Shown piece by piece: positions 2,726-30,682 of a stretch of 64,000 bases of DNA. Position numbers and translations under genes: made by a program. This stretch comes from an uncultured Bacteroides sp. (GTDB taxonomy: Bacteria; Bacteroidota; Bacteroidia; Bacteroidales; JACABE01), in assembly GCA_964496885.1 (NCBI GenBank), contig CAZCBG010000008.1, positions 4,354-68,353 on the forward strand. Direction: 5' to 3'. Under the pieces are notes generated by a model, which saw only the letters and a program-made list of their open reading frames with translations, made no database searches and had not been told where the DNA came from. Every line of letters begins with the position of its first letter. Within the stretch, counting starts at the first letter, position 1.

Positions 2726-2735
2726 AAAAATTATA

Positions 2736-3494: not shown

Positions 3495-3496
3495 TT

Positions 3497-4204
3497 TTGT
3501 CGCAACATTATATTAAGATGACAGATATGGAGAAATACAGGATATTCGACAACGAACTCGAAAAACTCAGCGAAAGAGTAGTGAAAATGAGTCATTTGGT
3601 TGAAGAACAAATAAGCAATGCCGTGCTTGCTTTAAATAATTATGATATAGAACTGGCAAAACAAGTTATAGAGAATGACAATAAGGTTGATAAACTGGAT
3701 GTAAAAATTGATAAACTTTGTCAGAAAATTTTCGCCTTGCAACAACCTGTTGCTACTGATTTAAGGTATATTATTTCATCACTTAAAATCAACAATGATC
3801 TGGAACGTATTGGAGACCATGCAGTTAATATTGCCAAACGAATAGATGCATTGAGCGATTATACCAATTTTTCAAAAGAATTCGGTGTGGATGATATTGC
3901 CAACAAAACTGTTTTATTGTACAAAGATGTGGATCAATTGATTAAAACACATAATCTGATACTAGCTACCGATATTTTTCAAAATGCAATCACTATAAAA
4001 GAGCGCTGTCATCAGATTTCCGAAAAAATCATAGAAGAAATGATGCAGCAGAAAGAAGTGATAGTAGTGGCTACCAATATCATGATTATTGTAAATTTAA
4101 TTGAGCGTATAGCCTCCTACTCCACCAATGTTGCAGAATCTATAATTTTCGTTGTGGATGGAAAAATTGTAAAGCATCAGAAAAAAGATGAAGAAATCAA
4201 TTAA
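3497..4204 (+). CDS. phoU: Phosphate signalling/uptake regulator PhoU (likely start is the ATG at 3518)
   Basis: Two PhoU repeats: LQQPVATDLR and DLERIGDHAVNIAK, then LIERIASYSTNVAE. Follows pstB. Confidence 0.95.
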   Translation: MSQHYIKMTDMEKYRIFDNELEKLSERVVKMSHLVEEQISNAVLALNNYDIELAKQVIENDNKVDKLDVKIDKLCQKIFALQQPVATDLRYIISSLKINNDLERIGDHAVNIAKRIDALSDYTNFSKEFGVDDIANKTVLLYKDVDQLIKTHNLILATDIFQNAITIKERCHQISEKIIEEMMQQKEVIVVATNIMIIVNLIERIASYSTNVAESIIFVVDGKIVKHQKKDEEIN

Positions 4205-4799: not shown

Positions 4800-4805
4800 T
4801 TTTAA

Positions 4806-6660: not shown

Positions 6661-6705
6661 TTTTAAAATATTTTAATAAAAGAACTAGTTATAAAAATTA
6701 ATTAA

Positions 6706-6761
6706 TTAATAATAACTTAATTTTAATTTAACATACCAGGCGTTATACTAACTTATATTTG
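6706..6761 (+). promoter_or_regulatory. Candidate Pho-box-like array plus Bacteroidota -7 element
   Basis: ttaataa (6706), ttaattt (6717), ttaacat (6728) at an 11-bp period; TATATTTG at 6754, 26 bp after the last repeat start. Confidence 0.55.
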
Positions 6762-11400: not shown

Positions 11401-13942
11401 AGTAAATGGTTTAACTCCAAACACACAATACTCTTTCAGAGTTGGTAAAAACGGAGCTTGGAGTACTATTGGATCTTTCAAAACTGCAAAAACTACCAAA
11501 GATGCTTTCTCTTTTGTTTATTTTACCGATCCACAAGCAAACACTGATGCCATGTTTAATGTTTCTCAAATTACCACTCATGCTGCTCAGACCATGTATC
11601 CAAATGCTAACTTCTGGTTAAGCTGTGGTGATTTGGTGGAATCCTCAGGTTCGGCAAATTCAGAATGGGAATATGAACAATTTTTCGAGACACAACAGGA
11701 TATTTTCATGAAGAATCCTTTTGCTCCTATTGAAGGAAACCATGACATTACTACAAATAAAAACTTTACCTACCATTTTAACACTGATTCTGTTGCTTTT
11801 GATTATGCAAAAGCAACAACACCCGGTAGCGTTTATTCATATGTTTATGGTGATGCTTTATTTATGCACTTGACTTACGAAAATTACAGTACAACAGGTT
11901 ATCTTGATTCATTGGCTAACTGGATGAATACCCAGGTAAAAGCTAATCCAACTACAAAATGGAGAATAGCCGTTTATCATAAAACAATGTATACAGGAAG
12001 CCAAAGTCATCAAAGTGATTCAGATGGTAAAACAGTTCGTTTGAAAATGGGACCTGTTTTCGATAGTTTAAAAGTAGATTTAGCTTTCCAGGGACATGAT
12101 CATGTTTATGAAATAATTGGACCTGTAAAAAATGTTTCATTAATACCTAATGCTGTTTCTAATCAAACTATAGTTACTGCAACGGTACGTGATAATGTTA
12201 CCGGATTACTAGGTGGTACTTTTGATGTAAAACAAGGAACATTATTTTTCTTAAACAATTCAGCTGGAAAGAAAAAATATGAACCACGTTCTTTAGCTCA
12301 AATGAATGCAGCTTATTCTGCAACACAAGTTCCAAATTATTTTGGAATGTTTACAGGTAGATTTGGTCAAACAGGCGAACCTACTTTCAGTAATGTTACT
12401 ATTAGTACTGATTCAATCAATATTTCTACTTATACTGTTGATAGTGTAGGAAATTCAACTATTTTTGATTCGTACAAAATTGTTAAAACTGATCAAGATA
12501 ATACATGGAATGGTTCTGCTGATAACAATTGGAACAAAGCTTCAAACTGGTCAGAAGGATTAATACCTACCCAGAATCAGAATGTGATAATACCTACTAA
12601 CGTTCCTAATTTCCCGACCGTTAGTTCTCCAGCTATCATTAACAATCTGACTGTTCAATCCAATTCAACTGCAACTGCCTCATTGTTGGATAATGGCCTT
12701 TTAACTTTAAATGGTAATGCTAGCATTAAATGTTACTTAAGTGGAAACAAATGGCATATGATTTCAATTCCAGTTCAATCAGCTACTTCAAGTGTATTTA
12801 ACTTAGGAGCCGGACAAGCTGATATTTATGCTAAAGGATACAGCAATGGTAACTGGGATAGTTTGATAACAAATCCAACTACTCCGCTTGTACTTAATAA
12901 AGGTTATGCTGTTTGGGCTGATACCCTAACTAATTCTACACCAAATCCAACATTAACTTTTACCGGAACTTTCAATACAGGAATCCAAACGCTACCTACC
13001 GAAACTGGCTGGAACCTGATCGGGAATCCTTTTATTTCTGCTATTGACTGGAATACGCTGAATTTAACCAATGTCAATGGTCAGGCTGTTAGAGTTTGGA
13101 ATCATGATTTACAACTTTATTCAACTTATAGCGCAATTGGTGGAGGTGTAGATGGTGGTAATCAATATTTATCTCCAATGCAGGCTTTCTTTGTTAAAGG
13201 ATTGAATACTGATGGTATAGCAATTTCTCATCCAAACAGAATTCATAATCCTCAACCTTTAATGAAAAGTGCTAACTCAACTATCAGTAATTTATTAAAA
13301 ATAAAAGCTCAGAGAAGTACTTATACTGATGAGATTAATGTTGTCTACAATACCATTGCAACGAATGGATATGATCCATTGTATGATGCCAATAAATTAT
13401 TTGTAACGGATAATAACATTCCTCAGGTATATTCATTAGCTAATAACAATGAATTAGCTATCAATGTATTTGGAAGTTTACCTGCAGCTATTCCTATGAA
13501 CATCAAATTAGGCGTTCCAGGAATTGTTAGTTTGACAGCTTCTGAAACAAATAGTTTTGATGCAAATATTTCAATTAAATTAGAAGATATTTTAAGTGGA
13601 ACTATTCAGGATTTACGCCAAAACCCTGTTTACGCTTTTAGTGCTTCGGCAAATGAAAATGCAAATAGATTCATTTTACATTTTGCATTGGCTCCAAATA
13701 GTATAAATGAAGCACCAATCAACAATACAAGTATTTATGCTTTCGATAAAACTATTTATGTAAATTCTAATGATAAAGTTAAAGAAATCAGTATTTATAA
13801 TATGCTTGGCCAGTTAATAACTTCAAAAATATGCAATGGCAGTGCCTTTAACTCAATTTCAATAAATAAAGCTTCAGCATTTTATATGGTTAGAGTTATT
13901 ACTGACAAAACTACTTACTCTGAAAAAGTATTTATAAAATAA
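8480..13942 (+). CDS. T9SS-secreted multidomain phosphoesterase: three calcineurin-like metallophosphoesterase domains (third is purple-acid-phosphatase type with FN3), a beta-rich stalk and a T9SS CTD (likely start is the ATG at 8531)
   Basis: Three motif sets: SDAHYG/GDIAN/GNHD/THDQ/FHGND; TDLHL/GDLT/GNHD/MHPG/GHFH; TDPQ/GDLVE/GNHD/YHKT/GHDH. Signal peptide ends TEA-Q. C-terminus YNMLGQL...KVFIK. Confidence 0.9.
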   Translation: MDKNIDTLINTIEIIKKMKRKKYFLDYFPKNFRKKFFNTLLLGICMLGFMSKTEAQIQFVYTSDAHYGITRARFQKAANVSATVVNGAMIAKMNNLTQLTFPNDGGVRSGYKVDSVDFVVMTGDIANRSETTIIPTLSASTCWSQFANDYINGTTLKDKTGSNSKLYLLPGNHDVSNAIGFYKTMSPLKDSATMVNIYNMMMPSPRAAGNYNYANEKIHYSKNIGGIHMMFVCMWPDSTERVWMANDLATVSSTTPVFIFTHDQPLVESKHLSNPNSPYTINSTNKFENLLLEKFKDGTAITAPSTIEQNGFASFVQAHPNIVAYFHGNDNQNNYYKYYGPNNNIAIDIIQVDSPMKGNISATDETKLSFQLITIDTLLKVMTVRECLYNTDTNNVYSPIIFGSSKTINFDVANYAQNTSTAGTKICSATDLHLMHPSLLVNDGVAFQTYLASDRKLIKESNAIMQELKNRIYEERPEIFLVPGDLTKDGEKISHQLMATYLDSIEMNGVTKVYVIPGNHDVNNVSAYSYDGSNVTKVDSVSPSDFKTIYNNFGYGEAVKTDTVSLSYLAKPKSKTWVLGIDVLEYDLNMAAGYPITEGKFKPSTYKWVLDRLKEAKDSSAVVLGMMHPGLTEHYTGQSVSFPEYVVLGWDTISKNFAKAGLKMMFTGHFHANDITKKSNPGNSSFVYDIETGSTVTWPCPYRVMDLKGDSILNVVTNRIQNINYNTNGMTFQNYALNYLNTGMTGIINYQLTHPPYSLDAGTAAAVTPHVVSAFTAHYAGDETIPASEQGFISYLNSVGQFSLASSLTNMWTDLTPSDNLVALPLKSSIDTINTIINNLIQSDYTVPSWTLFLRAKTAMVANQDSASIANMYSVIAKMKSSSMPYNIVMNINKDPKTKMAFNWFTNAGVTGGQVQIVTGNTNDTLAFNTPLMVVSARCDSAKNLNYSNSANGLLPLTGIADNSKKTYMFNKALVNGLTPNTQYSFRVGKNGAWSTIGSFKTAKTTKDAFSFVYFTDPQANTDAMFNVSQITTHAAQTMYPNANFWLSCGDLVESSGSANSEWEYEQFFETQQDIFMKNPFAPIEGNHDITTNKNFTYHFNTDSVAFDYAKATTPGSVYSYVYGDALFMHLTYENYSTTGYLDSLANWMNTQVKANPTTKWRIAVYHKTMYTGSQSHQSDSDGKTVRLKMGPVFDSLKVDLAFQGHDHVYEIIGPVKNVSLIPNAVSNQTIVTATVRDNVTGLLGGTFDVKQGTLFFLNNSAGKKKYEPRSLAQMNAAYSATQVPNYFGMFTGRFGQTGEPTFSNVTISTDSINISTYTVDSVGNSTIFDSYKIVKTDQDNTWNGSADNNWNKASNWSEGLIPTQNQNVIIPTNVPNFPTVSSPAIINNLTVQSNSTATASLLDNGLLTLNGNASIKCYLSGNKWHMISIPVQSATSSVFNLGAGQADIYAKGYSNGNWDSLITNPTTPLVLNKGYAVWADTLTNSTPNPTLTFTGTFNTGIQTLPTETGWNLIGNPFISAIDWNTLNLTNVNGQAVRVWNHDLQLYSTYSAIGGGVDGGNQYLSPMQAFFVKGLNTDGIAISHPNRIHNPQPLMKSANSTISNLLKIKAQRSTYTDEINVVYNTIATNGYDPLYDANKLFVTDNNIPQVYSLANNNELAINVFGSLPAAIPMNIKLGVPGIVSLTASETNSFDANISIKLEDILSGTIQDLRQNPVYAFSASANENANRFILHFALAPNSINEAPINNTSIYAFDKTIYVNSNDKVKEISIYNMLGQLITSKICNGSAFNSISINKASAFYMVRVITDKTTYSEKVFIK

Positions 13943-13978: not shown

Positions 13979-14200
13979 ATGAAAAATTCAATCAAAAAAA
14001 TTATCATACTTTTTTTTCTCTTAGCTGCCCCTGTTGTTATGAGCAATGTAATTGCTGATAACCCACAAAGTCCGGGTGGAAATCCATCAGGAGGAGTTCC
14101 CATTGATGGAGGAGCAAGTATAGTAATTGCTGCCAGCGCAATATATGGTGCCAGAAAAGCCCGTAAAGCATTGAAAACTAAAAAAGATGAAATTAATTAA
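13979..14200 (+). CDS. Small signal-peptide + PIDGG-TM-basic protein (PID-CTERM-like sorting-domain protein), copy 1
   Basis: Signal peptide (..VIA), then DNPQSPGGNPSGGV, then PIDGG, a hydrophobic helix and RKARK. 69/73 aa identical to the 26715 copy, with synonymous codon differences. Confidence 0.85.
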   Translation: MKNSIKKIIILFFLLAAPVVMSNVIADNPQSPGGNPSGGVPIDGGASIVIAASAIYGARKARKALKTKKDEIN

Positions 14201-14259: not shown

Positions 14260-14403
14260 AATTTTATGTAATCAAAAAAAGCATTAAAAACTTTAATAAG
14301 TAGTGTATATTCTTTCGATGATGATCCTTGTTCTTTCAAAAGCTAATAATATATAATTAAATCATTTTTAAAAATTTATTCAGTTTCTCAATATTATTTA
14401 AGC

Positions 14404-14470
14404 TTAATATTTATATAATCATATCATAACATTAAATTAATCTGTTTTTAATTTACAATAATGAAATTTG
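14404..14470 (+). promoter_or_regulatory. Candidate Pho-box-like array plus variant -7 element upstream of the TBDR operon
   Basis: ttaatat (14404), ataatca (14415), ataacat (14426), ttaatct (14437), ttaattt (14448); GAAATTTG at 14463, 26 bp after 14437. Confidence 0.55.
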
Positions 14471-14540: not shown

Positions 14541-15323
14541 ATGAAATATAATTTCATTATTTTAATATTATTATTTATAAATTTCAATTTGTTAGCTCAG
14601 AACAAAGAAAATAATTATATAATTACGCATAATGACAGTTTAGCATTGGAAAATATTATAGTTGAAAAATATTATATTGCCGATTCAACTGACTATCTGG
14701 ATTCAACCAAAAATTCTCTTCCTCTTGGTTCTGTAACTTACAGAATCTTTGTTGATATGAAACCTGCTTATAAACTACTATCTGTATTTGGAAGTCTAAA
14801 ACATGAATTATTTTTTTATTCAACCGAAAAATTTTTTAATGATTTGGAAGCTGATGCTATTACAGGTTTTAATATTAATATAAAAAATATCAGTAAAGCA
14901 AATATTGCATTGGATTCATGGATTACATTAGGCGCAGCTGCCAGAGGATTTACAGGCATCCCAAGAAATGAAGATACTATGGGATTAAAATTAATATACA
15001 ATAGGCCTTCCTTATATAAAGCCGGAGGATTTACAAAAGCAATTTTACCTGATTTTAAGCACTTCAACCTCGATTTCAGTGTTTTTGAAAAAGACACTAA
15101 CCAAGGAAGATTTTACACAAACAATGGAGCTTGGGCTGCACCTGGTGGTGTTAAAGGTCCCACACCTGATAATAAAGTTCTGATAGCTCAGATTACTACA
15201 AATGGTAAATTGAGTTTTAAACTGAATGTTCAAATTGGAACACCAAGTGGTGGATTTGTAATTTTCGTAGCTGATAAGCCCGAAGAAAATGAAATTGAAT
15301 TCAACAAATTGATTTTAAAATAA
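14541..15323 (+). CDS. Secreted protein consisting only of the unassigned VEKYY/TYRI/DSW/AQITT domain (paralogue 1)
   Basis: Signal peptide (LLA-Q); IVEKYYI, GSVTYRIFVDMKP, LDSWITLGAA, VLIAQITTNG, LNVQIGTP; no T9SS CTD. Confidence 0.85.
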   Translation: MKYNFIILILLFINFNLLAQNKENNYIITHNDSLALENIIVEKYYIADSTDYLDSTKNSLPLGSVTYRIFVDMKPAYKLLSVFGSLKHELFFYSTEKFFNDLEADAITGFNINIKNISKANIALDSWITLGAAARGFTGIPRNEDTMGLKLIYNRPSLYKAGGFTKAILPDFKHFNLDFSVFEKDTNQGRFYTNNGAWAAPGGVKGPTPDNKVLIAQITTNGKLSFKLNVQIGTPSGGFVIFVADKPEENEIEFNKLILK

Positions 15324-15350
15324 ATATATTAACCTTTAAATTATTACATT

Positions 15351-16448
15351 GTGAACAAAATTTATACAAATTTCTTATTCATAAGTCTGACATTTTTTGT
15401 AACTTTTTATAGTTATGCTCAGCATGGTCTCGATTCAGTCATAGTTGAAAAATATTATATTTCAAATTCAGCAGATTCAATTAAAAGTATTGGAATATTA
15501 CCTGCTAAATCTGTAACCTATAGAATATTTGTTGATATGAAACCTGGTTATAAATTTCAATCATCTTATGGAAGTGTGAATCATCCTCTTTTGATAACAA
15601 CAACTACTTCTTTTTTCAACAATGAAGATTATGGTTCAATATCTCCTGTATATACAAAAACACAAGCAAAGAAAAATACTGTTATGCTTGATTCCTGGCT
15701 ATCAGTAGGATCTGCATGTGTAGGTAATTTTGGCATTCTAAAATCAAGAGATAATGGTGTTGCTAATGTTATAAACGCAGATACAATTTTACAAAACAAT
15801 GATACTGCTGCAGGTATTCCTTTAACACAACAGGATGGCTTAATTAGCGGTAGTACGGGTACTTTTGGAGCCATTGGGATTGATAATGCTATAGCAGTTT
15901 TTGATGCAAGCAGTCAATTCGGAAATTCTTTTGTAGTTACCAATGGAGCATGGTATTGTTTAGCTGGTGCTATAGGTCCTGATACGAATAATCAGGTACT
16001 CATAGCCCAAATTACTACCAATGGCAGATTAAGGTTTAAACTAAATCTTCAATTAGGCACACCTACAGGAGGTACAGAAAATTATGTAGCTGAAAATCCA
16101 ATTGATTCGACTGAACACCAACGAGGTTATTTAACCTATGTTTCAGACACGAATATTAATATTATTGTTAATACGAATGATTTCAAAGAAAAAGAAAACT
16201 ACATCTCTGTTTTCCCCAATCCATCCAATGGTATTTATACGTTGAATGTATATTCTGTTGGTTTGAATTCTGAAAATTATTATTCCATCTATTCTATAAT
16301 GGGAAATTTAATTCTCAAGAAAAAAATGAACACTTTTATAGATGCTAAATCTGAAACCATCGATATAACATCAGTTCCTAAAGGTGTCTATTTTATTGAA
16401 ATTAATTTGAATGGGGTTTCATCTACAAAAAAAATAATTAAAAATTAA
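15351..16448 (+). CDS. T9SS cargo with the unassigned domain (paralogue 2)
   Basis: Same motifs as paralogue 1. C-terminal SVFPNPSNG...YSIMGNLI...KGVYFIEI...KKIIKN is a type A CTD. Confidence 0.88.
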   Translation: MNKIYTNFLFISLTFFVTFYSYAQHGLDSVIVEKYYISNSADSIKSIGILPAKSVTYRIFVDMKPGYKFQSSYGSVNHPLLITTTTSFFNNEDYGSISPVYTKTQAKKNTVMLDSWLSVGSACVGNFGILKSRDNGVANVINADTILQNNDTAAGIPLTQQDGLISGSTGTFGAIGIDNAIAVFDASSQFGNSFVVTNGAWYCLAGAIGPDTNNQVLIAQITTNGRLRFKLNLQLGTPTGGTENYVAENPIDSTEHQRGYLTYVSDTNINIIVNTNDFKEKENYISVFPNPSNGIYTLNVYSVGLNSENYYSIYSIMGNLILKKKMNTFIDAKSETIDITSVPKGVYFIEINLNGVSSTKKIIKN

Positions 16449-16481
16449 TTTTTTTCATCATTTAGTTTAATAACATTTCTT

Positions 16482-19400
16482 TTGTCCATATTCAGAACCT
16501 CTTTAGATCATAAATTTGAATATTTTATGAAATCATTCTTATTTCTTATTTCTATTATTTTTTTAATTTCTACAAATATATTTTCACAATGTATCATCAG
16601 AGGTAAGGTAACAGACTCAAAAGGTGAAACAATAGTTGGTGCATCTGTTTATCCAAAATCAAAAATGAATTTAGGTGTAGCTACCGACTTAAACGGTGAA
16701 TTTTCAATAAATTTACCTGAATCAGAAAAAGAAATTATAATCGTAAGATATATAAGTTATCAATCCATAGAAGACACTATAAAATACAAAAAAGGTATTA
16801 TTATAAAAAATTATGTTTTGGAAACTGTAACCAAAGCATTAAATGAAGTTGTTATCACTGCTAAAGCTTATAAAAATAATGATGCTCAGCTGGAAAAATT
16901 GAAAATGATTTCAATTTCTACAATTGATTATATTTCTGCTGAAACTATTAAAAAAACCGGTGATGCCAATGTAGCTTCAGCTGTTTCGCGTATTACCGGG
17001 GTTTCAACAACTAGCAGCGGATTGATTACAGTGCGCGGTGTAGGAGACCGATATGTAAAAACAACAATAAACGGAGCCCGAATACCCACCTTAGATCCTT
17101 TTACAAATAATATTAAATTAGATTTTATTCCTTCAAGTCTTGTCGATAATATTATCTTGTCAAAAACTTCCAGGCCCGATTTACCCGGAGACTGGGCAGG
17201 TGCTTTTATTTCAATTGAAACTAAAGATTATCCTGATACCCTTTCTTTATTTACAGAAACATCTTTTGGTTACAATTCCCAATCAACATTTAAAGATGTT
17301 CTTACTTCTCAAACAAGTTCAACCGACTGGCTTGGCTTTGATAATGGATTTCGTGACTTTGATCATAGTAATTATATTCAATTTAATAATACGCCTACAA
17401 AATATCAGGAATTTGCTGCCTTAGGTTTAGGCAATTTTTTTCAGTCGCTAGGCATAAATGCTAGCACACCCTGGAATGATACTTATTTTAAATTGGGATT
17501 AATTCAATTAGGATTATTAGGCAATGCACAAATAAATGATCCTCTAGCATTTCAAAATGCTACGAATATATATAATTCATTAGCTTATAAGGGAAAAGCT
17601 TTTAATATTATTAATTCAACTGCTGTTGAATCAGAGAAAAAACTTCCAAATAACTGGAATACAACAACTAAAAAAGCACCTATAAGTTTAAGTCAGAGTT
17701 TTTCAATTGGAAATCAAACAAAATTATTTGGGAAAACACTTGGTTATATAATTGGTTTGAGGTATTCAAGTTCTGTTCAATATGATCCGAATACGATTAA
17801 AAATGATTTTTCATTTCAATTTAACAATTTTAATTTACTTGATACGAATAGAAGTACATTTTCAAAATATCAGTTCATCAGCAAAGAGACAAACAGCTGG
17901 AGTGGTTTAATAAAATTAGCTTTAAAACTAAATAATAACAATAATTTTTCTTTCCTTTTTATGCCCAACATAATAGGAACAAATAATGTAAGAGATGCTG
18001 AATATGTTGAACCGGCTTCAAATGATCCAACGAATAACCCTCCAACTATAAATTATTCCAAATATCAATTTTATGAATCAAGGAAACAATTTATTTACCA
18101 GTTAAAAACCGAGCATTTTATTCCATCTAGAAAAATAAAAATTGATTTCAATGCTTCTTACACCAATGGGAAAAGCAATGCACCTGATTCAAAAATTTAT
18201 GAAAAGAAATTTGTAGATTCAAATGTTCCGAATGATTATTCAATCTATTTTACTTTTCCTGCTGTTAATATTAGTGATAAAAATAAACCTATCCGGTATT
18301 TTCGATTACTCACCGATAATGTTTTAAATGCACAGATTTCAGCAGAAATGCCTATTGACAAAAATCCTGATTTAATTCGAAAAATTAAAATTGGCAGCGA
18401 ATTTATTTATAATTATTTAGAAAATGAAAGCAATGTATATCAGTTTGTAAATGGTAACGGTTTTATTGATCCTACAGTTCAAACTTTACAAAAACTAAAT
18501 CCAGACTCTATTTTTAATATTGTAACTATTAATAATGGAGGAAATTTGCAACGATCAGTATATGGATTTTATGAGAAATACAGTAGGCCTATCGATGATT
18601 TTTTTGGGTACAGTACTATTTTCGCCTCTTATGCAATGGCAGATTATACGATAAGTCCAAAAATGAGAGCATCTGGTGGCCTCAGAATTGAAAAAGCTAA
18701 TATATATACAGATTGTAAGTTTTTTGATGAATTAGGTATAGTTGCCAATGATAATAGAAGAAAAATTGTAGATGTAAGAGGTACACAAATGGATGTTGAA
18801 CCCGGAGTATTGGATAAAGTATCTTTTTTGCCAAGTGTGAATTTTATTTTAAAATTAAAAAACACCGAATCATCTCTAATTAATTTAAGACTAAATTACA
18901 GCCAATCCGTTGCCCGTCCTAGTATCAGAGAACTTTCTGAAACTTCATTTTATGATTTTGAAACAAATTCTTATGTAAAAGGCAATGCTCAACTTAAAAT
19001 GGTAAAAATTAATAATCTTGACGCAAGAATAGAATATTATTTTAAATCGGGTGATAATATTTCAGCCAGTTTGTTTTATAAAGGCTTTGAAAATCATATT
19101 GAATTATCGAGTTGGGGATATGTATTATCTTGGATCAATAATCCGAATTATACAAATTTATATGGATTGGAACTGGAAGGTAAGAAAAATATAACTAAAC
19201 ACCTAGAATTTAAAGCAAATCTATCTTTAATATATTCTCAATCTGTATTAAATGGTGGAATATTATATGATTTAATGGGTCATATTTTCTTTTTAAAAGG
19301 TGGAAAAAGACCTATGTTTGGACAGGCACCTTACGTTTTAAACACTATGTTAACATATAATTTCCCTAAATATGGAATATCAACAACCTTAAGTTATAAC

Positions 19401-19703
19401 GTTCAAGGCAGTAAATTAGTAATAGTTACCGATCCAACAAAACCTGATATCTACGAGTTACCTAGACATTTGGTTGATTTTAAAATATCGAAAAAAATTG
19501 GGAATCATTTTAGTTTAAGTTTAAAAGTACTTGATATTTTTAATAATCCTGTTACAAGAGCTTATGTAAATGTAAATACAGATAATTATTTCAAAAATAT
19601 TTGGGATGATATCACCAATAAAAAACCGCTTGAAAACAATTTCATCTATAATAAATACAAATATGGAACAAATTACATTCTTTCATTTTCTTATAAAATT
19701 TAA
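16482..19703 (+). CDS. TonB-dependent receptor with N-terminal carboxypeptidase-like extension (likely start is the ATG at 16527)
   Basis: NTE IRGKVTD..GETIVGA; plug ITVRGVGDRY...LDFIPSSLVDNIILSK; C-terminal beta-strand ending YILSFSYKI. Confidence 0.92.
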   Translation: MSIFRTSLDHKFEYFMKSFLFLISIIFLISTNIFSQCIIRGKVTDSKGETIVGASVYPKSKMNLGVATDLNGEFSINLPESEKEIIIVRYISYQSIEDTIKYKKGIIIKNYVLETVTKALNEVVITAKAYKNNDAQLEKLKMISISTIDYISAETIKKTGDANVASAVSRITGVSTTSSGLITVRGVGDRYVKTTINGARIPTLDPFTNNIKLDFIPSSLVDNIILSKTSRPDLPGDWAGAFISIETKDYPDTLSLFTETSFGYNSQSTFKDVLTSQTSSTDWLGFDNGFRDFDHSNYIQFNNTPTKYQEFAALGLGNFFQSLGINASTPWNDTYFKLGLIQLGLLGNAQINDPLAFQNATNIYNSLAYKGKAFNIINSTAVESEKKLPNNWNTTTKKAPISLSQSFSIGNQTKLFGKTLGYIIGLRYSSSVQYDPNTIKNDFSFQFNNFNLLDTNRSTFSKYQFISKETNSWSGLIKLALKLNNNNNFSFLFMPNIIGTNNVRDAEYVEPASNDPTNNPPTINYSKYQFYESRKQFIYQLKTEHFIPSRKIKIDFNASYTNGKSNAPDSKIYEKKFVDSNVPNDYSIYFTFPAVNISDKNKPIRYFRLLTDNVLNAQISAEMPIDKNPDLIRKIKIGSEFIYNYLENESNVYQFVNGNGFIDPTVQTLQKLNPDSIFNIVTINNGGNLQRSVYGFYEKYSRPIDDFFGYSTIFASYAMADYTISPKMRASGGLRIEKANIYTDCKFFDELGIVANDNRRKIVDVRGTQMDVEPGVLDKVSFLPSVNFILKLKNTESSLINLRLNYSQSVARPSIRELSETSFYDFETNSYVKGNAQLKMVKINNLDARIEYYFKSGDNISASLFYKGFENHIELSSWGYVLSWINNPNYTNLYGLELEGKKNITKHLEFKANLSLIYSQSVLNGGILYDLMGHIFFLKGGKRPMFGQAPYVLNTMLTYNFPKYGISTTLSYNVQGSKLVIVTDPTKPDIYELPRHLVDFKISKKIGNHFSLSLKVLDIFNNPVTRAYVNVNTDNYFKNIWDDITNKKPLENNFIYNKYKYGTNYILSFSYKI

Positions 19704-19721
19704 AAATTAATATCACTTATT

Positions 19722-21044
19722 ATGAAATGGATTGTATTATTTTTTACATTGTTTTTAACTATAACAGTAAATGCACAGGATGCTATTATAAAAACGTTTG
19801 TTGAAACTTATTATATATCTGACAATAATGATGCTACCGATACTTTAGGTGGATTTCTTCAATCTGGATCAACCACATACAGGATATATCTGCAACTAAA
19901 AAAAGCATGTAAACTTTTATCTGTTTATGGAGATGCCAATCATACAATAAAAATTAACAGTACGGATGTATTTTTTAATAACAAGGATAGAGGCAAAACT
20001 TTTGGGAAAGAAATAGTAAAAACCAATCTTTCCAATAATACTGTAGCACTCGACAGCTGGATTACAATTGGCCAAGCAACAACGACTAAAAATGGGCTCA
20101 CCTATTTTGGAATTCCAAAATCCCTTGATAAAAATGCTTCGTTTATTGGTGGCATTAATAATGATGGAGGAAGTGCAGGAATTGCAAGCGGATTACTCAA
20201 AAATAATAATAGTCTAGCAGGCATACCAATAACTGCAGCTGATGGTATGGATACCATGATGAATATTCCATCTAATTGGGTGAATTTAGGATTTCTTGAT
20301 GCAATATCCGGTGTTGACTCTAGTATTTTCGGTTCAATAAAACCTGGCAAATCTTTTATAAGTAATAGTGCAAAATTACAAAACTCTGGCGTATCAGGTG
20401 TTGATCCTGATAGCAATTATGTTTTAGTTGCCCAGTTAACCACCAAAGGAAGTCTTTCATTTGAATTGAACGTCGAAATAATGAATCCTGATGGTTCTAC
20501 TACTAAATATACTGCAACTAGAAGTATTGATTCGCTAACTGTAAAACACTCCGGATGGCTCAAATTTCCTTATGAATGTGGGTGCATAGATCCAGCTTAT
20601 TTTGAATATAATTCAGATTATATATGTTCAAACCCTAATGAATGTGTTCATCCTATTGTTTTAGGTTGTATGGATCCCAATGCCTGTAATTATGATCCAA
20701 AAGCAAATTATAATGTAGCTTCATTGTGCTGTTATCCGGGCATGTGTGAAGGACGTGATATCAGTCTGGTTTGTCCCTCACTGAAAGGGGTATTCAAAAA
20801 AATGAGCTTATATCCTATCCCTGCTATAGACGTATTAACCTTAGAAACAAATAATGAAATTACAGAAGAAATAAAATTTGCCGTGTATAATTCCTATGGA
20901 AAAATTCAATTAGAGAAAAGTCTGGGCTCAGTATCAGGGAAAATCAATGAAAACATTAATGTATCTAAACTTGAAAAAGGTATATATTTAGTTCGTTTGT
21001 CCTCGGGTAATACTATTATCAGTAGCACTTTCATAAAATTATAA
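19722..21044 (+). CDS. T9SS cargo with the unassigned domain (paralogue 3), a Cys-rich GCMDPNACNY module and a CTD
   Basis: VETYYIS, GSTTYRIY, LDSWITIG, VLVAQLTTKG; CGCIDP...GCMDPNACNYDP...CCYPGMC; LYPIPA...KGIYLVRL...FIKL. Confidence 0.88.
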   Translation: MKWIVLFFTLFLTITVNAQDAIIKTFVETYYISDNNDATDTLGGFLQSGSTTYRIYLQLKKACKLLSVYGDANHTIKINSTDVFFNNKDRGKTFGKEIVKTNLSNNTVALDSWITIGQATTTKNGLTYFGIPKSLDKNASFIGGINNDGGSAGIASGLLKNNNSLAGIPITAADGMDTMMNIPSNWVNLGFLDAISGVDSSIFGSIKPGKSFISNSAKLQNSGVSGVDPDSNYVLVAQLTTKGSLSFELNVEIMNPDGSTTKYTATRSIDSLTVKHSGWLKFPYECGCIDPAYFEYNSDYICSNPNECVHPIVLGCMDPNACNYDPKANYNVASLCCYPGMCEGRDISLVCPSLKGVFKKMSLYPIPAIDVLTLETNNEITEEIKFAVYNSYGKIQLEKSLGSVSGKINENINVSKLEKGIYLVRLSSGNTIISSTFIKL

Positions 21045-21082
21045 ACAATCATCGCTTTCTAAAAAACAAAATAAATTTTACA

Positions 21083-21889
21083 TTGATGAAAACCAAGCAT
21101 AATTTTAATAATATATTCCCTCTTTTTATATTTTTTATTTTAGTTTTAATTTTTGGTTGTAAAAAAGAAAACTCCCTTAATGCTAATGAAACAGCAAGCA
21201 TGTCAGACATTGATGGCAACGTTTATAAAACTGTAAAAATTGGGAATCAATGGTGGATGGCAGAAAATCTAAAAGTTAGAAGATACAGAAATGGAGATAC
21301 TATCGATTTTGTAGGTCTTATTGGATATAATCTGGATTCTTTAAAATGGAACAACATAAATTATGGGGCCTTTTGTATAATTGATAATCTTGATTCAACC
21401 TCAAAAAATTTTAATGGAAAAAAATTCGGATTTTTATATAATGGATTTACTATAACTGATAGCAGGATAATTGCTCCTGCGGGTTGGCATATCCCAACTG
21501 ATGCAGAATGGAAAACATTGGAAATTTATCTTGGAATGAGCGATAACGAAGTAAATAAAACAAATTGGAGAGGAAGCATTGAAGGAAATAAACTAAAACT
21601 TCAATTAGGTTGGAATGATCTTTCCGAAAATAATTCGAATTATACTTTAAGTGAACAATATTATATTTATGGAACAAATGAAAGTGGATTTTCTGCTTTA
21701 GGTGGTGGATGTTGTATGTACAATGGAAAATGGAGTGACCCCCAAACATTTGCCTCCGGTTTTTGGTGGACATCTTCTATAATTGACAATAAAATATTAT
21801 ACAGGTATCTGGATTACCATAAACCCAATGTATTCAGGTACTATGCTTCCAAAACCTATGGCTTCAATATCAGGTGTGTAAAAGACTAA
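21083..21889 (+). CDS. FISUMP (Fibrobacter succinogenes major paralogous domain) lipoprotein
   Basis: Lipobox-like IFG-C-KKE; DIDGNVYKTVKIGNQWWMAENL, GFLYN, APAGWHIPTDAEW, NESGFSALGGG, GFNIRCVKD. Confidence 0.9.
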   Translation: MMKTKHNFNNIFPLFIFFILVLIFGCKKENSLNANETASMSDIDGNVYKTVKIGNQWWMAENLKVRRYRNGDTIDFVGLIGYNLDSLKWNNINYGAFCIIDNLDSTSKNFNGKKFGFLYNGFTITDSRIIAPAGWHIPTDAEWKTLEIYLGMSDNEVNKTNWRGSIEGNKLKLQLGWNDLSENNSNYTLSEQYYIYGTNESGFSALGGGCCMYNGKWSDPQTFASGFWWTSSIIDNKILYRYLDYHKPNVFRYYASKTYGFNIRCVKD

Positions 21890-22146
21890 ACTATATTATC
21901 TCTCCTATCTTATCATTCAACTTTATTTTTTTATATACATTATTATTTTCAATTTTATACCAATTATTTTTTAATTCTAATTTCAATTACATAATTGCTT
22001 AACGATAAAAAAATCAAGCAATTTCTCCATTAAAGATTAATTTATATTGAAGGTAATGTAATATCAACAGGTACAAAAAGTATTTTGTTATAGATCAAAA
22101 TATAAAAACTGTGACTTTATAATAACTTAATATTTTCATATTTTCC

Positions 22147-22224
22147 TTAACATTATTTTAGTATTAATATAATTATTTCATAAACTTATCTTCTCTTTTA
22201 ATTAACCTAGCTACAATACATTTG
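22147..22224 (+). promoter_or_regulatory. Candidate Pho-box-like array (weaker) plus -7 element
   Basis: ttaacat (22147), ttagtat (22158), ataatta (22169), ataaact (22180), ttaacct (22202), all in 11-bp phase; TACATTTG at 22217. Confidence 0.45.
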
Positions 22225-22267
22225 CAACATTATTAATAAATGAAATCACAAACAAAAAAAAATTAAA

Positions 22268-24097
22268 ATGAAAAAGAAAATTACAAAGATGCTGATGATT
22301 GCATGTATTTTAGCAATCTCAGTTAATACTGGCTTTGCTCAGTATAATGACTTAAACAACGGAGCAGAGTGTGGATGTCCTGCAGTTGGTTCTAGAACCA
22401 TTGTAACACTTGAATCTATGGGAACAAGTATTGGTACTAATGAATATGAAATTCAGGCCAATACAACACTTACCTGCAACAATATGTACACAATTTCTCA
22501 CAAGATTTATGTTGGGTATGGTGTTACGCTTACCATTCAACCTGGAACAGTAATTAAAGGTCAATGGGTAGACCCTGTAACTGGAAATGCTTCAGTTCTT
22601 TTAGTTGAAAGAGGTGGGAAAATTATTGCTGATGGTAAAGCGAATTGTAAAATTATTTTTACAGGTATCAATGACCCATTAGATGGTACATATGCTGTAA
22701 CCAATGTAGGTGATTGGGGTGGAATAGTAATGTGCGGTTTTGCTACCAATAACTTATCAACTGCCCGTAACTTTGGAACAGGTATGAAGGGTGCAGGTTG
22801 GAATGGAGTTGGTTTTTGCGAAGGATTAGACAACACTACCAAACATTTATGGGGAGCAGGAGATACTATTACATTAGCTAACGGTCAAGCAGTATCAATT
22901 CCAACAACATTTAATGACAATGACAACTCAGGAATTTTAAGATATGTGTCTGTTCGTCACGCCGGTATGCTTGTTGGTGGAAATACAGCTGGTAACGAAT
23001 TAAACGGTATTTCATTGTATTCAGTGGGTCGTGGAACTAAAATTGAATATGTTGAAACAGTTGCTGCTGCAGATGATAATTTTGAAATGTTTGGTGGTAC
23101 TGTTGATTTAAAACACTGTTCAGTATTATATGGTGACGATGATTTTTATGATTATGATTTAGGTTGGACAGGTAGAATGCAATTTTGTTTTGGTATAGCC
23201 GGCGACAGCTTAACCGGTTTACATTCAACTGATAATGGATATGAATGTGATGCTGATGATAATGGCAGCAGTACTACTTTTGATCGTTCACATCCAGTTA
23301 TTTACAATACAACACTTATTGGCAATGGACATATTAAAGGAACTGCTGATAATACGGGCCCTGCTGCTATTATGGCAAAAGAACTTACTGAAGGAAGCTT
23401 TATCAATAATGTATTTGTTAACTTCCGTTCAGGATTACATTTAAATACAGGCAGACAAGGTACAGGTACAGGTAAAGGCGGTGATGCCTATGATAACTGG
23501 ACAGATCATGGTCCTACTACTTATATAAATCCAAGTTATCCTACTGGTTCAGGTTGGGGAGCCACACAAAATGCAAAACTTCAATCATTAATTGTTAAAA
23601 ACAATACGTTTGTTCATTGTAATTTAACCAACGAAACTGCCCCTAATGGAAATTCATACTGGATTACTAAAGGTAATAAATTAACTACAGGCTCAGGTGC
23701 TACAATTGGTATTAATACCTCTGTTATAGCAAGTGCTGCCGATACTTTACAGTTTTACAATGATGGAAATACTCATCTTTCTGTTGTTCCTGGTATTGAT
23801 TATACATGGTCATGGAATGTAGCAAAAACCGATTTTTCAGATAAATATCATGCAGTTCCTACAACAAGTTTAACTTCAAATATGACACCTCCAAATGATG
23901 GTTTCTTTGATATTGTTAGCTTTAGAGGTGCTTTTGATCCAAGCAAAAAAAGCTGGTTATCAACTGATAATGGATTTATGATTCCTGTTGCAGATAATAT
24001 GCGTTCTGATAACCCAACTGACATTAACAATGATGGAGTTACTGATGTTACTGACTTCCTTATTTTACTCGGTAAATTTGGACAATCTAATCAATAA
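22268..24097 (+). CDS. Secreted right-handed beta-helix protein of the type that accompanies SusD-less TBDRs, with a C-terminal dockerin/EF-hand-like motif
   Basis: GTVIKG, VERGGKIIADG, WGGIVMCG, DNDNSGILRYVSVRHAG, NELNGISLYSVGRGT.IEYVE, DDNFEMFGGTV, DDFYDYD.G, RGAF; tail DINNDGVTDVTDFLILLGKFG. Confidence 0.8.
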   Translation: MKKKITKMLMIACILAISVNTGFAQYNDLNNGAECGCPAVGSRTIVTLESMGTSIGTNEYEIQANTTLTCNNMYTISHKIYVGYGVTLTIQPGTVIKGQWVDPVTGNASVLLVERGGKIIADGKANCKIIFTGINDPLDGTYAVTNVGDWGGIVMCGFATNNLSTARNFGTGMKGAGWNGVGFCEGLDNTTKHLWGAGDTITLANGQAVSIPTTFNDNDNSGILRYVSVRHAGMLVGGNTAGNELNGISLYSVGRGTKIEYVETVAAADDNFEMFGGTVDLKHCSVLYGDDDFYDYDLGWTGRMQFCFGIAGDSLTGLHSTDNGYECDADDNGSSTTFDRSHPVIYNTTLIGNGHIKGTADNTGPAAIMAKELTEGSFINNVFVNFRSGLHLNTGRQGTGTGKGGDAYDNWTDHGPTTYINPSYPTGSGWGATQNAKLQSLIVKNNTFVHCNLTNETAPNGNSYWITKGNKLTTGSGATIGINTSVIASAADTLQFYNDGNTHLSVVPGIDYTWSWNVAKTDFSDKYHAVPTTSLTSNMTPPNDGFFDIVSFRGAFDPSKKSWLSTDNGFMIPVADNMRSDNPTDINNDGVTDVTDFLILLGKFGQSNQ

Positions 24098-24115
24098 TCA
24101 TTAATAAATATAAAA

Positions 24116-26683
24116 ATGAAAAAAATATTAATCGTATTAAGCCTTCTCTTTTTGGGTATTTTTACCCAGGCACAGAATGGCTTAGAAAAAATTGTTGTTG
24201 AAAAGTATTATATCACCAATACTGCAGATTCAATAGCAAATGATAATAATGGAACTAATACAACTGGTAGCCTAAATGTAGGATCTGTTACCTATAGAAT
24301 TTATGCTGATATGCTTCCCGGTTATAAATTTCAGTCTGCTTATGGTAGTACTAATCACAATCTTAAATTCACTACTTCTACATATTTTTATAATGATATA
24401 AATAATGGTACTTATTATCCAGTTTATACCAAAACAAAATTTAAACAATTTACTACAGGTATAGATTCTTGGATATCTGTTGGTGCTGCATGTGGAGGTA
24501 ATTTTGGTGTGCTTAAAACAGATGATAATGCCACATCTAATGCACTTACTATATCTAATGGATCATTAACAAATAACGATCCTAAAATGGGTATTCCATT
24601 ATACACCAGAGATGGTTTACTATTAGGCTCACCTGTTACAACTGTTTCAATAGCTGGTATGGATGCTACAATTCCTGCTGATAATGGAGTACTTGATGTT
24701 TTTGACACACAGGAAACTGCAAATTCATTTATTTTAACCGGTTCAGCATGGTCCTCACAATCTGGTTCATTGGGAGTAAATGCTGATACAAACAGGGTAT
24801 TAATTGCACAGATTACAACCAATGGCGTATTCCATTACGAATTAAATATACAGATAGGAACACCGAGTTTAGGAATAGAACAATACGTTTCAAGTAATCC
24901 AGTTTTAGTAAATCTTGGACCTTATGGAATTCAAATGGAAAGAACAATACCATCACTCACCGGAACATACAATGTTGCCCCAAGTGTAAGTATTACTTCT
25001 CCTTCAAACAATTCATATTCATATAGCGGTGTTGCTACAGCTATTACAGCTGCAGCTTCTGATTTAGATGGTACCGTAACTCAGGTTGAATTTTTTGTAG
25101 ATGGTATTTCAATTGGTGTTACTACTTCTACTTATACTGTAAATTATACAGGTGTAACAGGAACACATACTTTAACAGCCATAGCAACTGACAATGATGG
25201 TAAAACTACCACTTCAAGTCCTGTAACTTTAATTTGTGTTCCTCAAAATTCTACTTGGTCAGGTGCTATTAGTAATGCATGGTCAAATACTGCAAACTGG
25301 GATTACTTTCCTGTAGCTGTTTCTAATGTTATCATACCTGTTGTTACAACAAATTATCCTACCGTTTCTGCTGCTACAACTATTAACAACTTAACTTTAG
25401 AATCAAATACAAGCGGAACCGCTTCATTATTAGATAATAGTTTATTAACCGTTAATGGAACAGCTAATGTAAAATTATATGTAACCGGAAACAAATGGCA
25501 TATGCTTAGCATCCCTGTGCAATCAGCAACTTCAAATGTATTTCATTTAGCTGTTGGTCAAGCAGATATGTATGTTAAAGGATATGTTGCAGGAAACTGG
25601 GGTAGTTTAATTACAAATACTTCAACTCCATTAATTCCAGGTATTGGATATGCAGTTTGGGCTGACACACAAACCGGTTCAACACCTAATCCAACCATTA
25701 TTTTTAATGGCAGTCTTAATACCGGAAACCAAGCATTAACTACAGAAGTTGCTTGGACACTTGTTGGAAATCCTTATACTTCGTCTTTAGATTGGAACAC
25801 AATAAATTCTTCAAACACTGAAGGACAGGTTGTTAGAGTTTGGAGTGATGCCTTACAATTATATACTTCTTTCCAAAATGGTGGAATCAGCTTAAACGGA
25901 GGTAGTCAATACCTTTCTCCAATGCAGGCATTCTTTGTTAAAGGTTTAAATACTAACGGTATTAATTTAACTAATGCAAATAGAGTTCATAATAATCAAG
26001 CTTTTCAAAAAAGCAGCAATACTATCAATAATTTAGTTAAGATTAAAGCTCAACGGAGTACTTATTCAGATGAAATTGCTTTTGCTTACAATACGAATGC
26101 AACTAACAATTATGATAATTTGTATGATGCAAGTAAATTATTTTCAACAGAAAATAATATTCCTCAAGTATATACTTTAGCAGATAACAATGAATTATCA
26201 ATCAATGCTTTTGGTAGTTTACCTGTAGCTTTTCCGGTAAATATCAAATTAGGTGTTGCTGACAATGTTGTATTAACTGCATCTGAGTTTAATAATTTTG
26301 ATCCAAGTGTTTCAATTATATTAGAAGATATATTAAGTGGAACTTTTCATGATTTACGTCAGAACCCTGTTTACGCTTTTAGTGCATCAGCTAATGAAAA
26401 TGCAAACAGATTTGTTTTACATTTTGGAATGGCACCAAATAGTATTAACCAAGCATCAATCAACAATACAAGTATTTATGCTTACGAAAAAACTATTTAT
26501 GTTAATTCAAATGACAAAATAAAAGAAATCAGTATCTATAATATGCTTGGTCAGTTAATAACTTCAAAATTATGCAATGGTAATAGCTTAAACTTAATTT
26601 CAATAAGTAAAGCTTCAGCATTTTATATGGTTAGAGTTATCACAGACAAAACCACTTACAGTGAAAAAGTATTTATAAAATAA
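24116..26683 (+). CDS. T9SS cargo: unassigned domain (paralogue 4) + Ig-like (Big) domain + stalk shared with the triple phosphatase + CTD
   Basis: VVEKYYIT, GSVTYRIY, IDSWISVGAA, VLIAQITTNG; APSVSITSP...VEFFVDG...HTLTAIATDNDG; YNMLGQL...KVFIK. Confidence 0.9.
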   Translation: MKKILIVLSLLFLGIFTQAQNGLEKIVVEKYYITNTADSIANDNNGTNTTGSLNVGSVTYRIYADMLPGYKFQSAYGSTNHNLKFTTSTYFYNDINNGTYYPVYTKTKFKQFTTGIDSWISVGAACGGNFGVLKTDDNATSNALTISNGSLTNNDPKMGIPLYTRDGLLLGSPVTTVSIAGMDATIPADNGVLDVFDTQETANSFILTGSAWSSQSGSLGVNADTNRVLIAQITTNGVFHYELNIQIGTPSLGIEQYVSSNPVLVNLGPYGIQMERTIPSLTGTYNVAPSVSITSPSNNSYSYSGVATAITAAASDLDGTVTQVEFFVDGISIGVTTSTYTVNYTGVTGTHTLTAIATDNDGKTTTSSPVTLICVPQNSTWSGAISNAWSNTANWDYFPVAVSNVIIPVVTTNYPTVSAATTINNLTLESNTSGTASLLDNSLLTVNGTANVKLYVTGNKWHMLSIPVQSATSNVFHLAVGQADMYVKGYVAGNWGSLITNTSTPLIPGIGYAVWADTQTGSTPNPTIIFNGSLNTGNQALTTEVAWTLVGNPYTSSLDWNTINSSNTEGQVVRVWSDALQLYTSFQNGGISLNGGSQYLSPMQAFFVKGLNTNGINLTNANRVHNNQAFQKSSNTINNLVKIKAQRSTYSDEIAFAYNTNATNNYDNLYDASKLFSTENNIPQVYTLADNNELSINAFGSLPVAFPVNIKLGVADNVVLTASEFNNFDPSVSIILEDILSGTFHDLRQNPVYAFSASANENANRFVLHFGMAPNSINQASINNTSIYAYEKTIYVNSNDKIKEISIYNMLGQLITSKLCNGNSLNLISISKASAFYMVRVITDKTTYSEKVFIK

Positions 26684-30680: not shown

Positions 30681-30682
30681 TA

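Follow-up and report, generated by a model that had tools for sequence, protein, structure and literature searches.

A conserved Bacteroidota cassette pairing an unassigned secreted domain with a TonB-dependent transporter and its probable link to phosphate starvation

Genes of the cassette and the shared domain X

We analyzed a 64,000-nucleotide stretch of DNA (hereafter, the window) from an uncultured Bacteroides sp. (contig CAZCBG010000008.1, positions 4,354 to 68,353). Between 14.5 and 26.7 kb on its + strand, seven closely packed genes form a cassette that encodes a TonB-dependent transporter, a FISUMP (Fib_succ_major) lipoprotein, a β-helix protein, and four secreted proteins that have one domain of ~230 residues in common, which we named X. 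Here, we describe domain X, the conservation of the cassette across Bacteroidota, and the promoter evidence that makes it a candidate apparatus for phosphorus capture and uptake.

The four X proteins are the products of open reading frames (ORFs) 14541 (260 aa), 15351 (365 aa), 19722 (440 aa), and 24116 (855 aa), each of which starts with an N-terminal Sec signal ending in A↓Q and continues directly into X. A preliminary description, made from the sequence alone, had proposed that one domain follows the signal peptide in all four, and alignment with MAFFT bore this out, with 39–42% identity to the first copy (14541), 47 invariant columns, and a mean column identity of 53%. Every motif listed in that description was found in the four-copy alignment (VE[KT]YYI, S[VT]TYRI[FY], K..S.[YF]G...H, F[FY]N, [LI]DSW[IL][ST].G, and V[LI][IV]AQ[IL]TT[NK]G). 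Across the family, about 20 positions are invariant and another 30 nearly so, and they are rich in Glu, Asp, His, Arg, Asn, Thr, and Tyr.

Matches to Pfam and NCBIfam also agreed with the four architectures first read from the sequence, i.e., X alone, X with the C-terminal sorting domain (CTD) of type IX secretion systems (T9SS), X with a Cys-rich module and CTD, and X with an Ig domain, stalk, and CTD. X1 (14541..15323) is X alone behind a Sec/signal peptidase I (SPI) signal (LLA↓Q); it has neither a CTD nor a lipobox and ends ~10 residues past X. X2 (15351..16448), the canonical ~360-aa member, joins X to a T9SS type A CTD (PF18962, 46 bits; TIGR04183, 44.4 bits). X3 (19722..21044) places a Cys-rich spacer (GCMDPNACNYDP...) between X and the CTD (PF18962, 44.8 bits; TIGR04183, 39.7 bits), while X4 (24116..26683) consists of X, a Big_7 Ig domain, a stalk of ~400 aa, and a T9SS CTD (TIGR04183, 34.0 bits). 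X2, X3, and X4 therefore lie above the curated TIGR04183 cutoff of 23 bits, and X1 gave no match. The X3 spacer (residues ~285–350) is built on a repeated C-x-D-P-x-A-C/x-N-Y-D/N pattern (GCIDPAYFEYN, GCMDPNACNYDP), which is kept in the ~445-aa X3 class and belongs to no Pfam family.

The transporter gene (16482..19703) encodes a CarbopepD_reg_2 domain (PF13715), a Plug domain (PF07715, 40.6 bits), and a barrel, with a TonB-box-like segment (NEVVITA) behind the CarbopepD_reg domain. Its barrel region (residues 431–1066) aligns to TIGR01782 (TonB-Xanth-Caul) at 168 bits against a cutoff of 310; since this score falls below the subfamily cutoff, we regard the protein as a TonB-dependent transporter but not as a curated TonB-Xanth-Caul member. 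There was no match to TIGR04056 (SusC/RagA), and SusD/RagB families (PF07980 and PF14322) were found neither in the cassette proteins, searched with Pfam and NCBIfam, nor in the precomputed Pfam assignments of related loci. Thus, the earlier premise that no SusD accompanies this transporter holds, and the transporter itself is not of the SusC/RagA type.

The FISUMP gene (21083..21889; PF09603, 138 bits; TIGR02145, 99.6 bits) encodes a lipoprotein with the lipobox LIFG↓C. A literature search on this family returned diversity-generating retroelement targets and Fibrobacter surface proteins and nothing else. The β-helix protein (22268..24097; 609 aa) has an SPI signal, an NNGAECGCP segment straight behind it that looks invariant throughout its family (Beta_helix_4, PF28492), and a dockerin/EF-hand-like tail. 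Because our 2025 copy of Pfam-A holds no PF28492 model, its assignment comes from precomputed Pfam labels of homologues: PF28492.1 is recorded for the window protein's own cluster (P0264, 100% identity) and for all 120 homologues listed (P0264–P0383). The tail, NPTDLNNDGxTDINDFSIFIGKFGQ, is conserved in at least 71 of 119 homologues. Solved structures yielded relatives of the transporter for its N-terminal CarbopepD_reg domain alone and, for the β-helix protein, just a weak match to a dockerin. A scan of the window with Rfam gave a single tRNA, far from the cassette, and no riboswitch or other RNA in the region.

In line with the original view that X fits no named family, neither Pfam-A (2025 copy) nor NCBIfam (June 2026) gave a match over the X region of the four ORFs. 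In a more recent set of precomputed Pfam labels, which includes PF28492, X proteins carry the sorting domain only and no family over X. Likewise, profiles built from 4 and from 121 sequences matched the CTD in sequences of the Protein Data Bank (PDB), but not the X region.

We then considered the predicted structure of X. AlphaFold2 modeled the X part of 15351 alone, with 121 aligned homologues, at a predicted local distance difference test (pLDDT) score of 94.5 and a predicted TM-score (pTM) of 0.93, and secondary structure assignment with DSSP described the model as a β-sandwich carrying a loop-rich insertion of ~100 residues. Foldseek found no match to this model in the PDB below E 0.09, with a query TM-score (TMq) of at most 0.31, and nothing below E 0.04 in BFVD. 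The best of these nonsignificant PDB matches were Ig-like adhesin or metal-binding sandwiches, namely, the adhesins UafA, SdrD, and Als, the copper protein YcnI, and DsbD-α; we take all of these resemblances to reflect no more than a generic Ig-like core. For the whole of ORF 15351 (pLDDT 79), Foldseek matches ran through the CTD alone, which superposes on the solved CTDs 8glk_D and 8qb1_A. The structural comparison that the preliminary description had called for thus yielded a confident model of X with no significant neighbor in the PDB, and none of the Pfam, NCBIfam, PDB, or Foldseek searches linked X confidently to a characterized domain. Together, these results support the view that X is an unassigned domain family, without a sequence or structural match, and they supply a confident structural model that has no PDB counterpart.

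A type A CTD directs its protein through the T9SS to be anchored on the cell surface, and X2, X3, and X4, which carry such CTDs, are predicted to take this route. Judged from their architectures, the X heads would stand at three distances from the membrane: directly on the CTD in X2, on a Cys-rich spacer of ~70 residues in X3, and on a Big_7 domain plus a ~400-residue stalk in X4. X1, lacking both CTD and lipobox, is predicted to be periplasmic. The surface role first suggested for all four copies is therefore retained for X2–X4, while X1 (14541) probably stays in the periplasm and is not a surface protein. A first X gene without a CTD is itself conserved, in about 29 of 45 loci, with a tail of just 5–32 aa after X; most of the other first X genes have a tail of ~105 residues that, judged by eye, is Ig-like rather than CTD-like. 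Like X1, the β-helix protein combines an SPI signal with the absence of both T9SS CTD and lipobox; its tail could possibly dock to the X-long protein that always adjoins it.

Conservation of the cassette and spread of the X family

A scan of one genome per GTDB species returned 467 relatives, of which we analyzed the best 78 loci, all from metagenome-assembled genomes (MAGs) and labeled as Bacteroidales, Lentimicrobiaceae, Paludibacter, Flavobacteriales, Flavobacteriaceae, Chitinophaga, Sphingobacteriales, or simply Bacteroidia. Their habitats are mostly lakes, ponds, and rivers, together with activated sludge. When ORFs of these loci were searched with the window proteins, the order in nearly all of them was a short X gene (not always present), X-CTD, transporter, X-Cys-CTD, FISUMP, β-helix, and X-long. 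A long transporter gene was found in 65 of the 78 loci (and one truncated by a contig end in more), FISUMP in 59, the β-helix gene in 48, and three or more X genes in 55. Almost all of the missing genes coincide with contig ends, and a single locus (L027) has downstream sequence yet no transporter. The gene right after the transporter, with a median length of 445 aa, matched X3 best in 59/59 loci, and the gene right before it matched X2 best in 61/62, which implies that the X paralogues predate the divergence of these orders. The X4-type X-long gene always follows the β-helix gene.

Further metagenome contigs, reached through X or β-helix homologues, carry the same cassette between unrelated flanks. 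In one locus (L081), the block of β-helix and X-long genes precedes the rest of the cassette, an order that fits an organization in two units. In another metagenome contig (L082, 500–3340), the position upstream of the transporter, occupied elsewhere by X genes, is taken by a Kelch-repeat protein; the promoter motif described below and the remainder of the cassette are retained.

The linkage between X and the transporter that had been noted in the window thus recurs in essentially all of the 78 loci with enough sequence, and X homologues in the visible loci are not mostly unlinked from a TonB-dependent receptor. The cassette is a conserved Bacteroidota unit of ~12 kb with X as its signature module, and its gene order supports a functional tie between domain X and this receptor.

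To gauge the family as a whole, a profile of the four X copies was searched against 1.84 billion proteins. It retrieved 1304 representatives at 50% clustering, nearly all of them from Bacteroidota MAGs and 557 with E ≤ 1e-30, so the family extends far beyond chance; a word-indexed search gave at least 2140 X proteins. These proteins reach 2182 aa and hold up to four tandem X copies, and X lies at the N-terminus in most representatives. Among the top 120 matches listed, all those with a named source are Bacteroidota MAG proteins, annotated as "T9SS type A sorting domain-containing protein" or "hypothetical protein." A search for cultured carriers, seeded from a Flavobacteriaceae MAG, likewise returned MAG or metagenome proteins only among the matches listed. 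In 45 long homologues scanned for Pfam partners, Por_Secre_tail occurred in 37, accompanied by Big_7, Ig_7, PKD, Big_2, TSP3, and EF-hand domains; no enzyme domain was fused to X in these 45 architectures, and matches to NOC3p, DCD_N, and mCpol were dismissed as low-complexity noise. These architectures support a role of X as an N-terminal head domain borne on T9SS-anchored spacers.

Such a layout raises the question of whether the X proteins are adhesins or surface structural proteins, used in particle attachment or gliding and linked to the transporter only through shared export and anchoring. Adhesins usually have this build, with the head at the N-terminus, Ig-like stalks, and a T9SS CTD; the nearest folds to X are Gram-positive and fungal adhesins (UafA, SdrD, and Als), and some family members string up to four X copies in tandem. 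However, strict synteny with a TonB-dependent transporter across orders would be unexpected for a plain adhesin, copies without a CTD are conserved, and the promoter motif indicates that the cassette is coregulated with pst genes. We therefore consider an adhesive role very unlikely.

The promoter repeat and the phosphate neighborhood

The preliminary description had linked the cassette to phosphorus, and the window does hold phosphate genes beside it: a pstC-pstA-pstB-phoU operon (414..4204, + strand; Pfam BPD_transp_1 twice, ABC_tran, and PhoU), the promoter of which lies outside the window. Across the 78 loci, however, pst genes adjoin the cassette in just 5, all of them close relatives or isolated cases. 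Since this adjacency is weak, the promoter motif was used instead to test the link to phosphorus.

A Gibbs sampler applied to the upstream regions of 55 first cassette genes returned AnTTAACaTAAAcaTAATATTaanTTAA, from which a position weight matrix (PWM) was built. The motif consists of three direct repeats (TTAAC / nTAAT / TTAA) with an 11-bp period and in most loci starts 30–170 bp before the start codon. Repeat spacing of this 11-bp type is the geometry of OmpR/PhoB-type regulators (PMC9306846). In the window, a Pho-box-like cassette promoter element (14391..14440, + strand) comprises three overlapping, 11-bp-phased matches to AnTTAACaTAAAcaTAATATTaanTTAA, scoring 9.8 (14391), 13.1 (14402), and 15.5 (14413). 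A second, internal promoter region occupies the gap between the FISUMP and β-helix genes (22114..22169), with scores of 12.3 at 22114 (+ strand) and 12.5 at 22142 (− strand). A third site (6704..6731, + strand; 14.5) lies upstream of a small unit encoding a CarbopepD_reg protein and a MORN-repeat protein. The matrix is no general marker of promoters: on both strands of the window together, five matches exceeded 12 bits, compared with 2.1 expected from shuffles, and those on the forward strand (6704, 14402/14413, and 22114) all fall within the phosphate region.

The motif was also found at sites outside its training set. In locus L001, the best matches (20.5 and 21.2 bits) are placed ~100 bp upstream of the Porin_O_P gene with which a PstS-pstCAB-phoU operon begins; PstS of L047 has four clustered matches directly before it; and L038 shows two matches ahead of a 449-aa gene, after which come PstS and pstC. 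All three visible pst promoters therefore carry the motif, with scores of 12–21, while its chance rate estimated from shuffles is ~0.0025 per 150-bp promoter. Two further loci (L053 and L056) have it before PlcP-like metallophosphoesterase genes; in L056, an OmpR-type response regulator comes next. PlcP is known to remodel lipids under Pho control (PMC4796936; PMC8115612).

Over the 1.14 Mb of the 78 loci, 98 of 100 matches above 14 bits are intergenic. Besides the cassette promoters, such matches precede the β-helix gene (6), the small CarbopepD_reg gene (5), pst operons, and the two PlcP-like genes. Regions upstream of the β-helix gene have a median PWM score of 7.4 against −0.6 for shuffles, and in the L082 contig, the motif lies 78 bp upstream of the transporter gene and 116 bp upstream of the β-helix gene. 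The strongest copies stand before the CarbopepD_reg/MORN unit (17.8–23.5 bits in L001 and 19.5 in L032), which makes this unit probably coregulated. In the window, it comprises the stand-alone CarbopepD_reg protein (6788–7138) and the MORN-repeat protein (7283–7744), and it is also present in L001 (7949–8988) and L032 (7894–8933); the CarbopepD_reg protein has 116–127 aa across these loci and carries a signal peptide.

Because the cassette has its motif in common with pst operons and PlcP-like genes, it is a probable member of the Pho regulon, and the TTAAC-type 11-bp repeats are a candidate Pho box of Bacteroidota; no published Pho-box consensus for this phylum turned up in our literature search. 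The earlier phosphorus link was thus upheld by the promoter motif and not by pst adjacency.

Alternatively, the cassette might import a nutrient that contains no phosphorus, such as a glycan, a metal chelate, or a cofactor, with the motif belonging to another or broader regulator and the phosphate context being a coincidence of lineage. The flanks do vary widely among species, with pst adjacency confined to the closest relatives, and the β-helix and C-type-lectin-like FISUMP modules are typical glycan binders. The receptor, moreover, resembles TonB-Xanth-Caul, albeit below the TIGR01782 cutoff, and characterized members of that subfamily import carbohydrates; X for its part bears a weak likeness to copper-binding YcnI. 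We nevertheless regard this explanation as quite improbable, given that the motif stands directly upstream of pst operons in every visible case and of two PlcP-like genes at a low chance rate, that no glycoside hydrolase, SusD, or siderophore gene occurs within or beside the cassette, and that X shares a stalk with, and in one case is fused to, a phosphoesterase.

This phosphoesterase is a secreted protein of 1820 aa encoded upstream of the cassette (8480..13942, + strand), with three metallophosphoesterase stretches (PF00149), a purple-acid-phosphatase N domain (PF16656), and a T9SS CTD (TIGR04183). Over their C-terminal 500 aa (stalk plus CTD in X4), this protein and X4 are 66% identical, so the same surface chassis bears either an X head or three phosphoesterase domains, and a recent exchange of the stalk-CTD module is implied. 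In L072 (6900–12002), X and a region homologous to the window metallophosphoesterase lie together in one ORF of 1700 aa, the only fusion of X to an enzyme that we saw.

Several other genes surround the cassette. Between phoU and the motif at 6704 (window 4332–6660) lie a CYTH protein (triphosphate tunnel metalloenzyme), a 287-aa ORF without a family, and a CHAD protein; the same trio occurs in L032 and may point to metabolism of polyphosphate or triphosphate. Just upstream of the cassette, a 73-aa PID-CTERM protein (13979–14197, + strand; NF046080, 34.9 bits, cutoff 26) is followed by a hairpin and T-run, and just downstream is an exosortase-family membrane protein (27049–27696, + strand; TIGR04178, 37.6 bits, cutoff 23) that most resembles XrtX/XrtY, at scores below their cutoffs. 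By these family matches, the two look like a minimal pair bracketing the cassette. Compared with L001 and L032, the phosphoesterase and PID-CTERM genes look inserted between the MORN gene and the cassette. Farther downstream (29061–33358, − strand), an alpha-amylase-family protein is encoded beside an 891-aa protein with a C-terminal GT4 glycosyltransferase; this pair suggests a glucan or trehalose-type pathway and is unrelated to the cassette.

Elsewhere, Pfam counts in the cassette flanks include Ppx-GppA (3), PhoU (3), and OmpR-type regulators (3–4), and pstB is a flanking gene in other species too. In about 15 loci (L025, L033, L049, L051, L060, L066, L077, and others), the 5 kb upstream hold a divergent operon with a Wzx-type flippase (Polysacc_synt/MatE) and several sulfotransferases. 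We rejected this enrichment as a functional clue, as it stems from one clade of 15 related species and probably reflects lineage synteny.

Proposed function and comparison with known systems

From these observations, we propose that the cassette is a phosphate-starvation-induced apparatus of the outer membrane for capture and uptake, independent of SusD and equipped with T9SS-displayed X heads, a reading to which we give slightly better than even credence. When phosphate is scarce, a PhoB-type activator would bind the phased repeats at the two cassette promoters, and the T9SS would present X heads at several distances from the outer membrane. The X heads, the C-type-lectin-like FISUMP lipoprotein, and the β-helix protein would then capture a phosphorus-containing compound or polymer, with the latter two perhaps helping to hold or process it. 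The TonB-dependent transporter would import the substrate or its fragments, the CTD-less X1 would receive it in the periplasm, and pstSCAB would take up the phosphate set free. In the present genome, the triple metallophosphoesterase on its X4-type stalk may free phosphate, or fragments fit for transport, at the surface. Seen this way, X would be a functional analogue, not a relative, of SusD and surface glycan-binding proteins (SGBPs).

As to the substrate, the lectin-like and β-helix partners hint at a glycan-containing polymer, and the CYTH, CHAD, and Ppx neighbors hint at polyphosphate; candidates include phytate, polyphosphate, nucleic acids, and teichoic-acid-like phosphoglycans, among which we make no choice. 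A more specific version of the proposal, which we put forward only tentatively and hold to be rather doubtful as a whole, casts X as a new-fold phosphorus-ligand binder on both sides of the outer membrane. Its T9SS heads at three heights and its free periplasmic copy would form a relay feeding a non-SusC transporter, under a new Bacteroidota Pho box (TTAAC-type, 11 bp), widespread in uncultured freshwater Bacteroidota.

Several observations weigh against a phosphate-starvation-induced capture apparatus. Besides the rarity of pst adjacency, the flanks consist mostly of housekeeping genes with no connection to the cassette. The motif, partly palindromic and rich in AT, lies within AT-rich genomes, and upstream of the β-helix gene, its forward-strand median is barely above that of the reverse strand (5.0). 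Neither the β-helix protein nor X1 has a recognizable surface-export signal, which makes the topology of the model uncertain, and the X homologues seen, among the matches listed, all come from uncultured organisms. Finally, the roughly 20 invariant polar residues of X (E, Y, D, T, R, H, N, Q, and W) would fit a catalytic site too.

This last point leads to the possibility that X is an enzyme of new fold (a phosphoesterase, nuclease, or depolymerase) acting on a surface phosphorus polymer, with the transporter importing the products and regulation as proposed above. Apart from the composition of the conserved positions, conserved N-N-x-D-x-G and Q-D-G loops could bind metal, and the core cassette has no other dedicated hydrolase. 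Moreover, Flavobacterium starved of inorganic phosphate (Pi) makes many uncharacterized proteins alongside strong phosphatase activity (PMC8115612). We nonetheless judge an enzymatic X unlikely: it shows no sequence or fold similarity to enzymes, its nearest, nonsignificant folds being adhesin-type Ig sandwiches; three to four paralogous heads with graded spacers and a CTD-less copy suit capture and hand-over better than catalysis; and where genomes call for an enzyme, they mount it on a shared stalk or join it to X.

If the capture-and-uptake proposal is true, the cassette would be a widespread apparatus (hundreds of species, 1304 X clusters) that joins type IX secretion to TonB-dependent import without SusD. 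Bacteroidota recycle organic matter in lakes, soils, and wastewater, where phosphorus often limits, and their uptake of phosphorus across the outer membrane is known only in outline. The X family, now labeled merely by its sorting domain, would gain a name and a testable role, and the candidate Pho-box consensus for the phylum could be used to predict Pho regulons in uncultured genomes.

Of the known systems, the nearest precedent, likened here by its published parts list, appears to be PUSIII of Flavobacterium johnsoniae (Fjoh_3853–3859; Lidbury et al. 2020), which is strongly induced by Pi depletion (PMC8115612). PUSIII comprises a TonB-dependent transporter with Plug and CarbopepD_reg_2 domains alone, a β-helix lipoprotein (FI), and two T9SS-sorted proteins without an assigned domain, and FI is the most abundant exoprotein of F. 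johnsoniae under Pi depletion (PMC8115612). The cassette shares with it a transporter of the Plug plus CarbopepD_reg_2 type, an adjoining β-helix protein, T9SS-sorted proteins of no known domain, and the lack of SusD. However, PUSIII includes an S41 peptidase and a FecR/extracytoplasmic function (ECF)-sigma pair and has no FISUMP gene, and its β-helix protein is a lipoprotein, whereas that of the cassette has an SPI signal. Control by phosphate starvation was measured for PUSIII, whereas for the cassette it is deduced from the promoter motif. A literature search on locus tags Fjoh_3854–3857 found no follow-up work.

SusCD/PusCD systems with their SGBPs resemble the cassette in that an operon encodes a TonB-dependent transporter together with several surface accessory proteins that lack catalytic domains and presumably act in capture. 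In the cassette, however, these accessories are β-sandwich heads displayed via a T9SS CTD rather than α-helical SusD lipoproteins or lipidated SGBPs. X does not belong to SusD: it is a β-sandwich and not an all-α, tetratricopeptide repeat (TPR)-like protein, has an SPI signal without a lipobox, matches no family, and has a non-SusC partner. Hemophore and shuttle systems (HasA-HasR, HmuY-HmuR, and BtuG-BtuB) likewise encode a dedicated nonenzymatic binder beside the transporter, and the conserved Tyr and His residues of X recall the ligand-coordinating residues of hemophore-type proteins. In contrast to these systems, X has no sequence or fold similarity to their binders, three to four paralogues occur per cassette, and regulation points to phosphate, not to iron or cobalamin. 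As T9SS type A cargo (PF18962/TIGR04183), X2, X3, and X4 qualify by CTDs above the curated cutoffs and X1 does not, but a CTD marks export and anchoring and says nothing on cargo function. Together, these comparisons suggest that the cassette is best filed as a transporter-plus-surface-binder arrangement built on an unnamed domain family. Its conservation in dozens of uncultured Bacteroidota species and its apparent activation together with the phosphate-uptake genes also make it a promising candidate for a route of phosphorus acquisition not yet described.

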